Of a DNA stretch of 54,949 bases, positions 52,215 through 54,949 are shown in pieces. The stretch covers positions 1 to 54,949 of the forward strand of contig JAOZKZ010000001.1 in NCBI GenBank assembly GCA_029935075.1, written 5' to 3'. Position 1 is the stretch's first letter. The number at the start of each line of letters is the position of its first letter. The position numbers and the translations under genes were made by a program. Source of the DNA: Campylobacterales bacterium. Its GTDB lineage: Bacteria; Campylobacterota; Campylobacteria; Campylobacterales; QNZT01. Under the pieces are notes generated by a model. It saw nothing but the letters and a program-made list of their open reading frames with translations, had not been told where the DNA came from and ran no database searches.

Positions 52215-52703
52215 ATGGTAAAAAAAGTACTATATACATTCAACAATGAAAATTCAAAAGGACTTGATAAAGTTCCTTTGAATAGTGTTATATTTATTGA
52301 GAATAATTCAGGCTCACCTAAACTTTTGGTATTGACTGATGATGCTAGTATAACAGATTCAACCACAATAACAACATTTTTGGGATTGGTTGATCAATGG
52401 GAAGAGTTTGACACTGGGGCTTCGTTCACTTATGAATCAAAATCTGGTGCTTATACTGCATCTGTTTTTGATTATATTTATGCCGATACATCATCTGGGG
52501 TTTTCACAATCACTTTACCAGCAACACCAAGTGTTAATGATGAGGTTTATATATTAGACACTGCTTCTAGTTTTGGGACTAATAATTTAACAGTTGATAG
52601 AAATTCTGAAACTATTATGGGATTAACCGAGGATATTGATTTGAATGTAGACGATTTAGAATATAAATTTATATATACTGGGTCTGATTGGCGAGTCTTA
52701 TGA
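52215..52703 (+). CDS. short fibre-anchor protein
   Basis: Its N-terminus MVKKVLYTFNNENSKGLDKVPLNSVIFIENNSGSPKLLVL is homologous to the N-termini of 49198 and 50729. Confidence 0.65.
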   Translation: MVKKVLYTFNNENSKGLDKVPLNSVIFIENNSGSPKLLVLTDDASITDSTTITTFLGLVDQWEEFDTGASFTYESKSGAYTASVFDYIYADTSSGVFTITLPATPSVNDEVYILDTASSFGTNNLTVDRNSETIMGLTEDIDLNVDDLEYKFIYTGSDWRVL

Positions 52704-54091
52704 TTTATTCTGATATATTTAAGAGCGATGATACAGTTCCGGGCGATATCATTGATGTGCCTGAGAACTTTAAGAGTGATGATTTTTACTTGAGTATTAA
52801 CGAGGAAATAAAAATAGACATTACTAACTTCCCTGAACTTGATGGGAATGTTTTTCCTTATGATTTTAGTGATGTGACTTTAGAACAAGAGATAAATAAC
52901 CCAAGCCCTACAGAAAATGATCGTTTTGGTTCTAGTGTTTCTATTTACGGTGATAGTTGTATAATAGGGGCTTATTTGGAAGATACAGGAGAAGATAATG
53001 CTGGGAGTGTTTACATTTTTACTCGTTCTGGTACCTCATGGAGTTTAGAGCAAGAGATACATAACCCAAGCCCAACAGCAGATGATTACTTTGGTTCTAG
53101 TGTTGCTATTTACGGTGATACTTGTATTATAGGGGCTTATCAAGAAGACACAGGAGGTAGTGCTGCTGGGAGTGTTTATATCTACACCCGTTCTGGTACT
53201 ACTTGGAGTTTACAACAAGAGATACATAACCCAAGCCCTACAGCAGATGATAAGTTTGGCTATCGTGTTTCTATTTATTCAGATTCTTGTATTATAGGAG
53301 CTTATTTGGAAGACACAGGAGAAGATGATGCTGGTTCTGTATATATTTATACCCGTTCTGGCACCACATGGAGTTTAGAACAAGAAATAAATAACCCAAG
53401 CCCTGTAGCAGATGATAAGTTTGGTGACAGGGTTTCCATTTATGGTGATACTTGTATAATAAGTGCTTATGGGGATGATACAGGAGAAAGCAGTGCTGGT
53501 AGTGTTTACATTTACACCCGTTCTGGTACTACATGGAGTTTAGAACAAGAGATAAATAACCCAAGCCCAACAGCAGATGATTACTTTGGTTATAGTGTTT
53601 CTATTTACGGTGATACTTGTATAATAAGTGCTTCTCATGAAGACACAGGATTTGATCAAGCTGGTAGTGTTTACATTTACACTCGTTCTGGTACTACATG
53701 GAGTTTAGAACAAGAGATACATAACCCAAGCCCTACAGCAGATGATAGGTTTGGTTTTAGTGTTTCTATTTATTCAGATACTTGTATAATAAGTGCCTCG
53801 TATGAAGACACAGGAGAAAGCGGTGCTGGAAGTGCTTACATTTACACCCGTTCTGGTACCTCATGGAGTTTAGAACAAGAAATACATAACCCAAGCCCCA
53901 CAGCAGATGATAATTTTGGTTGGAGTGTTTCTATTTATTCAGATTCTTGTATTATAGGTGCTTATCAAGAAGACACAGGGGCTGATAGTGCTGGAAGTGC
54001 TTATGTTTTCACCGCAGATTCAACGGACATATTAACAATCCAAGGCACAAACAAAGCCCTTAAGATAAGGAATGAAAATGAGTACATATAG
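52700..54091 (+). CDS. FG-GAP/integrin-alpha-like seven-bladed beta-propeller protein (start revised from TTG 52688)
   Basis: ATGA overlap. It has seven consecutive 55-aa repeats LEQEI[HN]NPSPTADD.FG.SVSIYGD.CIIGAY.EDTGE..AGSVYIYTRSGT.WS. Confidence 0.8.
   Translation: MIYSDIFKSDDTVPGDIIDVPENFKSDDFYLSINEEIKIDITNFPELDGNVFPYDFSDVTLEQEINNPSPTENDRFGSSVSIYGDSCIIGAYLEDTGEDNAGSVYIFTRSGTSWSLEQEIHNPSPTADDYFGSSVAIYGDTCIIGAYQEDTGGSAAGSVYIYTRSGTTWSLQQEIHNPSPTADDKFGYRVSIYSDSCIIGAYLEDTGEDDAGSVYIYTRSGTTWSLEQEINNPSPVADDKFGDRVSIYGDTCIISAYGDDTGESSAGSVYIYTRSGTTWSLEQEINNPSPTADDYFGYSVSIYGDTCIISASHEDTGFDQAGSVYIYTRSGTTWSLEQEIHNPSPTADDRFGFSVSIYSDTCIISASYEDTGESGAGSAYIYTRSGTSWSLEQEIHNPSPTADDNFGWSVSIYSDSCIIGAYQEDTGADSAGSAYVFTADSTDILTIQGTNKALKIRNENEYI
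52880..54034 (+). repeat. 7 x 165-bp near-identical tandem repeats (coding)
   Basis: Repeat phase was checked at 52880, 53045 and 53210, and continues every 165 nt. Confidence 0.9.
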
Positions 54092-54949
54092 AGACTATCA
54101 TAAAAATAAATCAGACTTTGTAGCAGGGACTCTTCAAAAAGCACAAGATTATAAAGGGAATTCTATAACCGCTAGTAAATACCTCGGTGGGGATTATGGA
54201 GTGTATGTGGATAGGACTTTATATCCAGAGTTGGCTGATAATGTGATTTCAAGGGCTGCTGTTTTGCAGCAAGAAATAAATAACCCAAGCCCAGTAGCAA
54301 ATGATTACTTTGGTTGGAGTGTTTCTATTTATGGTGATACTTGTATAATAGGTGTTCGTAATGAAGACACAGGAGCCGATGATGCTGGAAGTGCTTATGT
54401 TTTCACCCGTTCTGGTACTACATGGAGTTTAGAACAAGAGATACATAACCCTACCCCAGAGATTGATGAAAGATTTGGTGTTAGTGTTGCTATTTATGGT
54501 GATACTTGTATTATAGGTGCTCCTTATGAAAACACAGGAGAAAGTGATGCTGGTAGTGCTTATGTTTATACCCGTTCTGGTACTACATGGACACTAGAAC
54601 AAACGATAAATAACCCAAGCCCAACAGCAAGTGATTTATTTGGTTCTAGTGTTGCTATTTACGGTGATACTTGTATTATAGGGGCTTTTTTGGAAGACAC
54701 AGGAGAAGATAATGCTGGAAGTGCTTATGTTTACACCCGTTCTGGTACTACATGGAGTTTAGAACAAGAGATACATAACCCAAGCCCAACAGCAAGTGAT
54801 GATTTTGGTTATAGTGTTTCTATTTACGGTGATACTTGTATTATAGGGGCTTATTTGGAAGACACAGGAGAAGATAATGCTGGTAGTGTTTACATTTACA
54901 CCCGTTCTGGTACTACATGGAGTTTAGAACAAGAGATACATAACCCAAG
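54078..54949 (+). CDS. second FG-GAP-like propeller protein, 3'-partial at the window end (absent from the ORF track)
   Basis: Translated by hand as MSTYRDYHKNKSDF... then LQQEINNPSPVANDYFGWSVSIYGDTCIIG... The frame has no stop to 54949. ATG 54078 lies 6 nt after aagga, and ATG 54072 is an alternative start. Confidence 0.75.
   Translation, partial: MSTYRDYHKNKSDFVAGTLQKAQDYKGNSITASKYLGGDYGVYVDRTLYPELADNVISRAAVLQQEINNPSPVANDYFGWSVSIYGDTCIIGVRNEDTGADDAGSAYVFTRSGTTWSLEQEIHNPTPEIDERFGVSVAIYGDTCIIGAPYENTGESDAGSAYVYTRSGTTWTLEQTINNPSPTASDLFGSSVAIYGDTCIIGAFLEDTGEDNAGSAYVYTRSGTTWSLEQEIHNPSPTASDDFGYSVSIYGDTCIIGAYLEDTGEDNAGSVYIYTRSGTTWSLEQEIHNP
54264..54949 (+). repeat. at least 4.1 further copies of the 165-bp repeat, continuing beyond the window
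   Basis: Repeat starts fall at 54264, 54429, 54594, 54759 and 54924. Confidence 0.9.

Follow-up and report, generated by a model that had tools for sequence, protein, structure and literature searches.

An adaptor gene and tandem FG-GAP propeller genes form a putative receptor-binding cassette in a contig of a probable T4-like phage from a hydrothermal vent

Contig JAOZKZ010000001.1 was analyzed over its entire length of 54,949 bp, and this whole stretch of DNA is referred to as the window in the following. At its 3′ end, inside a tail-fiber gene cluster, it carries a translationally coupled cassette which comprises an adaptor gene, a gene for a protein with an N-terminal segment of about 60 amino acids (aa) followed by an FG-GAP propeller, and at least one further gene of the same design that is cut by the contig end. 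From genomic context and distant homologues, we consider it reasonably probable that this cassette specifies a virion-borne receptor-binding module, in which an anchored adaptor would be combined with two or more small seven-bladed propellers as distal heads. In silico analyses established the repeat family and the fold of the propellers, the conservation of the cassette, the homology of the adaptor, and the concerted evolution of the blades. The contig has a G+C content of about 35%, was detected chiefly in two runs from a single metagenome sample of a hydrothermal vent, and most likely represents a part of a large T4-like myovirus from the vent community.

Propeller gene 1 is complete and encodes 463 aa on the forward strand (52700-54091). 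Its open reading frame (ORF) was listed as 52688/52700-54091; the ATG at 52700 overlaps the TGA of the upstream gene as ATGA and the stop is located at 54091. The first part of the gene (52700-52879) specifies a unique N-terminal segment of 60 aa, a candidate docking segment, which has homologous N-termini in the proteins of two related contigs (L004 and L005). Its last residues are ‘DVT’, and the first ‘LEQEI’ strand follows immediately. From 52880 on, exactly seven in-phase units occur in register every 165 nucleotides (nt) up to position 54034, each encoding 55 aa and corresponding to one blade. An earlier interpretation made without database searches (hereafter the sequence-only reading) had counted seven such units within 52700-54091, and this count was reproduced here. 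The TRF program described the same array with a period of 165, 6.8 copies and 82% matches. Unit 7 (53870-54034) is diverged at its 3′ end, beyond ‘...GSAYVFT’; it lacks the ‘RSGTTWS’ strand and continues into the unique tail ‘ADSTDILTIQGTNKALKIRNENEYI’.

Gene 2 starts on the same strand with an ATG at 54078, which is preceded by the ribosome-binding site AAGGA and leads to a 14-nt overlap with gene 1. The window contains only the 5′ part of this gene (54078-54949), namely 290 codons with no stop up to the contig end, which falls inside the repeat array. A unique N-terminal segment of 62 aa (54078-54263), carrying an ‘LYPEL’ motif that resembles ‘YP.L’ in the N-termini of relatives, precedes the repeats (54264-54949). 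They comprise four complete units of 165 nt (54264-54923) and a fifth that is cut by the contig end after 26 nt and contributes 8 residues. ORFs, units and Pfam matches therefore bear out the sequence-only reading in its description of two consecutive FG-GAP repeat genes running off the window, the second beginning at 54078 with a unique 62-aa N-terminus and at least four units. Judged from relatives of 410-479 aa, gene 2 is probably short of full length by about 120-190 residues. Both products are very acidic, with an isoelectric point (pI) of about 4.1, and inspection by eye, without a predictor run, revealed no obvious hydrophobic N-terminus or signal peptide. The ‘YP.L’ motif was also considered as a clue to a tail-collar or another known family for the 60-aa N-terminal segments, and was dropped as no Pfam match appeared at E-values up to 10.

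Both propeller proteins belong to the Pfam family FG-GAP_2 (PF14312), as their sequence motif had suggested. The family matched gene 1 in seven stretches (E = 2.6e-90, 296.9 bits) and gene 2 in four stretches (E = 2.9e-56, 187.9 bits), both of them passing the curated gathering threshold of 23 bits. The AF2 model of the gene 1 product, which was based on 30 homologues, reached a pLDDT of 91.7 and a pTM of 0.87 and shows 28 blade strands, that is seven times four; its N-terminal segment was modeled with a pLDDT of 72-87 and strands at residues 30-40 and 54-66. When this model was compared with the PDB by Foldseek, all 50 matches listed were integrin alpha propellers, the best one with an E-value of 2e-18, about 460 aligned columns and a TMq of 0.66. 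A single-sequence search of the PDB sequences with gene 1 returned no match, and the family profile reached integrin alpha-M by sequence with an E-value of 3.5e-5. The predicted structure thus supports a closed integrin-like seven-bladed propeller, with ring closure and loop mapping resting on the secondary structure and topology of the model, and the seven blades that had been deduced from the unit number agree with it. The inspection for Ca2+ sites proposed along with them had a negative outcome. The canonical hairpin D-x-[DN]-x-[DN]-G-x-x-D, which is found in the 1-2 loops of integrin blades 4-7, was absent from both proteins in a regular-expression scan. The 1-2 loop of the propeller is reduced to ‘YGD’, and acidic residues are located in the 2-3 loop ‘EDTGEDNAG’. 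No enzyme family scored above the Pfam cut-off in the propeller proteins.

The adaptor gene (52215-52703, forward strand) encodes 162 aa and was defined by BLASTP, profile, Foldseek and PHROG matches; its stop codon forms the ATGA overlap with the start of gene 1. Residues 1-58 are an N-terminal module that the adaptor has in common with the ORFs 49198 and 50729. In BLASTP, it is 46% identical to ORF 50729 and 38% to ORF 49198 over 48-58 aa, with E-values of 1e-9 and 2e-9, respectively. The common module suggests a common attachment site for the adaptor and the two fiber proteins. Residues ~69-162 form an XD1-type domain similar to those of T4 gp9 and gp10. A profile of the adaptor matched the PDB entries 7RFV, 7REJ and 7RFO (N-terminal part of CBA120 TSP4, residues 100-206) with an E-value of 3e-10 in hmmsearch. 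The AF2 model of the adaptor is moderate in quality, with a pLDDT of 83-92 in the C-terminal domain, and its top folds in Foldseek were TSP4-N (E = 1e-8), a baseplate protein of Klebsiella phage KP1, T4 gp9 (1e-4) and T4 gp10 (6e-4). In addition, the adaptor matches N-termini of tail fibers and tailspikes in PHROG. In TSP4, residues 1-181 comprise a baseplate anchor domain and XD1, the latter being regarded as a spacer, and the docking of partners in CBA120 and T4 is accomplished by XD2 and XD3 (PMC8825819). Sequence and model together identify the 162-aa protein as a predicted anchor-plus-XD1 protein, so that the anchor function assigned earlier to the gene at 52215 is backed both by the module common to ORFs 49198 and 50729 and by the homology of the C-terminal domain to TSP4-N. 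The ORFs from 42989 to 52703 match tail-fiber PHROGs, and the propeller genes are co-oriented with them and linked through overlapping start and stop codons.

The same module was noticed from a broader perspective in three consecutive forward-strand genes (49198-50688, 50729-51736 and 52215-52703), which share a start of about 50 aa, ‘M[IV]K[KR].L[YF].F......VPL......I’, and are wholly divergent thereafter. From their sequences, these genes look like alternative receptor-binding proteins for one attachment site.

The cassette is conserved in related phages. The nearest homologues are about 60% identical and show the same arrangement of adaptor and propellers. On a 119.6-kb ENA contig (L002, also seen as L003), a 156-aa adaptor, which is 38% identical to that of the window (E = 5e-22) and has a weak Pfam match to T4_gp9_10_N, is followed by propellers of 468 and 479 aa with overlapping junctions. 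Contig L004 harbors an adaptor, a seven-unit gene, a six-unit gene (1751-2983) and, in part, a third propeller gene (2993-3556), and L005 and L006 contain a propeller pair of 473 and 479 aa. Genes overlap at the junctions of the cassette, and in each of the three genomes compared, which included L002/L003 and L004, the overlap between adaptor and first propeller gene is of the ATGA type. As a side observation, L002 also encodes a 476-aa fiber protein (7893-9323) with Mtd_N, the N-terminal domain of the major tropism determinant of a Bordetella phage, two genes upstream of its adaptor. The ORFs 43784 and 45210 of the window have an ‘IK[IL]KRG’ N-terminus like this protein.

On a larger scale, a scan of IMG/VR revealed 402 stretches that encode relatives. 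Seven units are present in 64 of the 97 complete viral ORFs that contain units, and the others include ten ORFs with six, five with five, two with fourteen and four with twenty-one, where the five- and six-unit counts may partly originate from degenerate terminal units. This distribution supports a norm of seven units. Propeller genes often stand in tandem in groups of two to four, and in many contigs seven units form the final residues of proteins of 565-1336 aa, most of which are unannotated and have N-terminal parts that are fiber-like as judged by eye only. One such fused protein (L011) has a weak tail-fiber PHROG match. The position of the propeller as the extreme C-terminal domain in fused viral proteins supports a distal placement. 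In L062, the units are internal and accompanied by strong baseplate-wedge matches. Viral proteins with 14 or 21 FG-GAP units, that is two or three propellers per polypeptide, were observed as well (L009, 9254-12049; 2083-aa ORFs of L015, L016, L017 and L049); fiber-like regions border the units on the N- and C-terminal sides in the 2083-aa proteins.

In GenBank, the best phage matches are 30-35% identical and come from the cyanophages S-TIM5 and S-MbCM6 and from Vibrio phage nt-1, where the protein is named ‘FG-GAP repeat protein’. The S-TIM5 protein AEZ65754.1 is annotated as ‘virion structural protein’ and the S-MbCM6 homologue as ‘structural protein’; one S-MbCM6 record labels the homologue ‘gp8 baseplate wedge’. 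The S-TIM5 label reportedly goes back to mass spectrometry of virions. At the DNA level, neither megablast nor blastn detected a match to the locus in GenBank phages. The literature discusses FG-GAP proteins for giant viruses, and no structural, binding or functional study of a phage example was found in full-text searches. The phage FG-GAP propeller family is already known and common in uncultured phages, and the locus described here is a well-formed, if fairly ordinary, example of it. What makes it most interesting is the way in which the blades evolve, concerted change of whole units being combined with focused diversification of loops. The propeller class as a whole is widespread and uncharacterized, and its members are probable receptor-binding heads in environmental phages.

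Comparison of the units within the window gave pairwise identities of 68-92% at the DNA level (mean 80%) and 60-87% at the protein level (mean 75%), so that their earlier description as near-identical was overstated. Units from different genes are no less similar to each other (81%) than units from the same gene. The long identical runs mentioned in the sequence-only reading were found in part: the longest exact run common to two sites comprises 61 nt (at 53494 and 54878), and the 53-mer quoted there has one exact site (54735) and five further sites with 1-3 mismatches, compared with none in shuffled sequence. The 61-nt run was not accepted as significant by itself, given the conserved codons and a P-value of 0.26 for the longest fragment (MCF) in Sawyer's test.

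Across genomes, the blades resemble each other more within a phage than between phages. In a set of 54 units from the window, L002, L004 and L005, every unit (54/54) has its closest match among the units of the same genome, in many cases a unit of the other gene. An insertion of 2 aa, which makes them 57 aa long, is present in each of the 28 units of L002 and L005, and ‘LQQEI...LYGDTLVVGA’ is common to all units of L004. In the more distant single-gene viral relatives, the blades are irregular and diverged. Sawyer's test on polymorphic sites yielded an SSCF of 11,879, versus 9,356 ± 491 in permutations (P = 0.0005). Complete six-unit second genes occur in two independent lineages (P0039 and P0064), and therefore blade and gene number are not fixed: within the clade there are six or seven blades and two or at least three genes. 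This pattern is typical of blades that evolve in concert, whether by gene conversion or by unequal crossing-over, or else of repeated re-amplification, as far as can be judged from the sequences. The expectation that the locus is prone to recombination was thus supported by the own-genome neighbors, the lineage-wide insertion, the SSCF statistic and the relatives with six or seven units.

Differences between the units are spread over all three codon positions (539, 498 and 737 at positions 1, 2 and 3) and do not cluster at the third. The dN/dS ratio of the units is 0.45 overall and 0.30 in the scaffold, and it rises to 1.55 in six hypervariable columns, a value above 1 that is only indicative because the columns were picked after viewing the data. 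These columns comprise the residues flanking ‘FG’ (one on each side), two after ‘GA’ and two positions inside ‘TGxxxAG’, and in all four related genomes they are the most variable ones. The strand map of the model places them in the 4-1 and 2-3 loops, which in an antiparallel blade of four strands inevitably point to one and the same face, the one that binds the ligand in integrins. Targeting by a diversity-generating retroelement (DGR) was considered as a source of this variation; the variant rates (A 0.137, C 0.124, G 0.097, T 0.102) show no adenine bias and a DGR was therefore rejected, a reverse transcriptase not having been searched for.

From these observations the following working model can be drawn up. 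The adaptor would occupy the attachment site of the two neighboring fiber proteins, and the propellers would dock by their N-terminal segments and serve as distal receptor-binding heads. Each blade may combine a homogenized scaffold with a few positions in the same-side 4-1 and 2-3 loops that vary from blade to blade, and the variable face formed by them could contact the host as a multivalent lectin- or adhesin-like surface. The blades evolve in concert, probably through recombination or gene conversion that acts inside each gene as well as between the paralogues, and this exchange would also alter the number of blades and genes among related phages. A possible, rather doubtful extension is that the paralogous propeller genes act as a cassette system, in which the binding face would be continually reshuffled, and the blade count changed, by unequal crossing-over between the genes and by gene conversion of blade-sized tracts. 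With the same reserve, one might speculate that such reshuffling provides recombination-based host-range variation without a DGR, comparable to pilin or variable lymphocyte receptor (VLR) cassette systems. If the binding role is true, the locus would be a useful model of host-range variation by repeat proteins, and with an adaptor of 162 aa and a propeller of 463 aa it is a compact and expressible example.

The integrity of the array was evaluated with Logan unitigs from the two runs. Exact and unit-specific matches cover 53127-53212, 53718-53954, 53974-54331 and 54515-54668, the third of them spanning the junction of gene 1 and gene 2, and the matching unitigs are single-copy with a depth of 14-22 versus 15.9 in the flank. 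These single-copy exact matches make a gross misassembly unlikely; for the unit order as a whole, one short-read assembly is still the only basis. Unitigs which skip 1398, 1562, 700 or 292 nt were examined as deletion variants and discarded, as none of the distances is a multiple of 165 that would keep the register; unseen units or related strains are the probable source of these joints. A word depth of about 15 times the flank near the contig end might have hinted at further units, and was not used because it is confounded by related phages.

None of the search routes extended gene 2 past 54949. Exact-protein look-ups of gene 1 with either start codon had no match, and the adaptor was located elsewhere only on a 4.7-kb Logan contig, which stops in unit 1. 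An exact DNA pattern from the N-terminus of gene 2 was absent from viral contigs, a degenerate repeat pattern was absent from metagenome contigs, and a protein-based scan of metagenome contigs returned only relatives with at most 36% identity. The homologue search with gene 2 yielded nothing above 69% identity and no fragment of the same population, and the Logan unitigs were too strongly fragmented to walk through the array. On a general note, the window contig ends in or beside an FG-GAP array, as do the contig L001 from Logan and many contigs of IMG/VR (L007, L008, L010, L024, L033, L040 and L048). FG-GAP repeats are a recurrent break point of short-read assemblies, and contigs and host-range genes are systematically truncated there.

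Several points weigh against a receptor-binding module. Virion location, docking and receptor binding are deduced from genomic context and from distant homologues. The adaptor contains none of the docking jelly-rolls XD2 and XD3 and ends at residue 162, right after the XD1-like domain, and in Pfam the N-terminal segments of gene 1 and gene 2 match no known docking or collar family. Sawyer's MCF is not significant, and the hypervariable columns were chosen a posteriori. The S-TIM5 homologue is only about 32% identical and is located outside the tail module, with its annotation taken at face value, and FG-GAP_2 is far commoner in cellular genomes, with thousands of matches in bacterial and archaeal metagenome-assembled genomes, and is abundant there in proteins of unrelated roles. 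The propellers could be virion proteins with a purely structural role as spacer, shield or assembly scaffold and take no part in host recognition. Homologous propellers inside the giant baseplate-wedge proteins of cyanomyovirus-like contigs (L062) and the ‘gp8 baseplate wedge’ record of S-MbCM6 would fit such a role, as would the adaptor domain, XD1 having been described as a spacer (PMC8825819). This explanation is nevertheless unlikely, as most fused relatives carry the propeller at the extreme C-terminal, distal end, variation in the four genomes is focused on loop positions of one face, and copy and blade number turn over among relatives. Loop variation together with number turnover is typical of host-contact proteins and not of conserved scaffolds. 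Several families of polysaccharide lyases contain β-propellers, and an enzymatic role of the window proteins as tail-borne depolymerases (lyases or hydrolases) has to be weighed for this reason, to which their strong acidity can be added. Branched receptor-binding complexes like the one of CBA120 commonly include depolymerases borne by the tail (PMC8825819). We regard this role as quite improbable, since the 50 PDB fold matches listed are all integrin alpha and include no enzyme, no enzyme family exceeded the Pfam cut-off, and the unit alignment shows near-equivalent blades with no blade-specific conserved catalytic residues, an arrangement which suits repeated binding sites better than a single asymmetric active site.

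A location outside the virion would mean that the proteins are made during infection, for example for superinfection exclusion, or that the genes are a moron acquired from bacteria. The abundance of FG-GAP_2 in cellular genomes and the position of the S-TIM5 homologue among non-structural genes speak for this possibility. It seems very improbable in view of the same-strand location inside the tail-fiber cluster, the translational coupling to a baseplate-anchor-like adaptor, the conservation of the cassette in related phages, the fusion of propellers to fiber-like N-termini in other viral contigs, and the lack of an obvious signal peptide or hydrophobic N-terminus noted by eye with no predictor run. 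Finally, a partial assembly artifact could have arisen if a short-read assembler had produced a chimera in the repeat, affecting how many units gene 1 has, in which order they stand, or how gene 1 is joined to gene 2. The contig does end inside the array, the Logan unitigs break throughout it with a few joining non-adjacent places, and many IMG/VR contigs likewise end in such genes. There is hardly any reason to expect a chimera, however, with a frame that is intact over 463 codons, a count of seven units that agrees with independent assemblies of relatives, and exact single-copy unit-specific unitigs from two runs, including the junction at 53974-54331. The receptor-binding module thus remains the interpretation that we favor.

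Compared with known systems, the propellers of the window share seven repeats, the signature FG...GD...GA...G..Y.F and the predicted seven-bladed fold with integrin alpha and FG-GAP_2 proteins. In contrast to integrin alpha, no blade of the window carries the DxDxDGxxD Ca2+ hairpin, there are no thigh, calf or transmembrane parts and no beta-subunit partner, and the propellers are encoded as small, independent proteins headed by a segment of 60 aa. Moreover, integrin blades differ far more from one another than do those of the window, whose mean protein identity is 75%. The annotated phage FG-GAP proteins of S-TIM5, S-MbCM6, nt-1 and IMG/VR resemble them in repeat family, in the norm of seven units and in the frequent tandem arrangement of genes, whereas the identity to those of cultured phages amounts to 30-35% only. 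In the window, the propeller is separate and small behind a dedicated adaptor and not the C-terminal domain of a long fiber, and its blades are homogenized, unlike the irregular and diverged blades of distant viral relatives.

The adaptor aligns by sequence and fold to CBA120 TSP4-N and to T4 gp9 and gp10, and the clustering of several receptor-binding genes with a common attachment module is reminiscent of the branched complex of CBA120. It differs from the latter in that the adaptor stops after XD1 and the heads would be propellers instead of beta-helix tailspikes, with a putative interaction between them. The lectin of Psathyrella velutina is an integrin-like seven-bladed propeller with repeated sugar sites. 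A seven-bladed integrin-like propeller of very similar repeats, as predicted for the window, would be expected to offer several equivalent binding pockets on one face in a similar manner; this lectin was not among the listed fold or profile matches, and sugar binding by the window proteins is purely hypothetical.

Beyond the cassette, several markers on the contig are T4-like, namely a T4-type RNA ligase (Rnl1), nrdA split by a homing endonuclease gene, and nrdB, and the nearest relatives of the DNA ligase belong to Vibrio phage Va1-like and Campylobacter T4-like phages. The large subunit of ribonucleotide reductase, nrdA, is encoded in two forward-strand ORFs (26669-28273 and 29059-30108) with a homing-endonuclease ORF (28266-29072) between them. 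This split layout is reportedly like that of Aeromonas phage Aeh1. Directly after the DNA ligase gene, a 13-nt sequence is perfectly repeated five times in tandem (TATTAAGCTAAAG; 34753-34817), and a 260-nt repeat with two copies and 82% matches (37615-38141) is located in a stretch without an ORF of at least 100 aa. Eight consecutive paralogous genes on the forward strand (7779-14439) encode proteins of 259-300 aa with a mutual identity of 31-53%, and the three that were tested had no Pfam match. The tail-fiber cluster itself contains a second, unrelated repeat protein (46907-48607, forward strand), which consists of about ten repeats of about 50 aa, ‘FFKPDGSRMY...IYQYDLSTxWDLSTADYATNSV’, and matches SGL/lactonase-type beta-propellers in Pfam (E = 8.5e-21). 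As listed, its ORF overlaps the preceding gene by 133 nt, and the real start is probably located further downstream.

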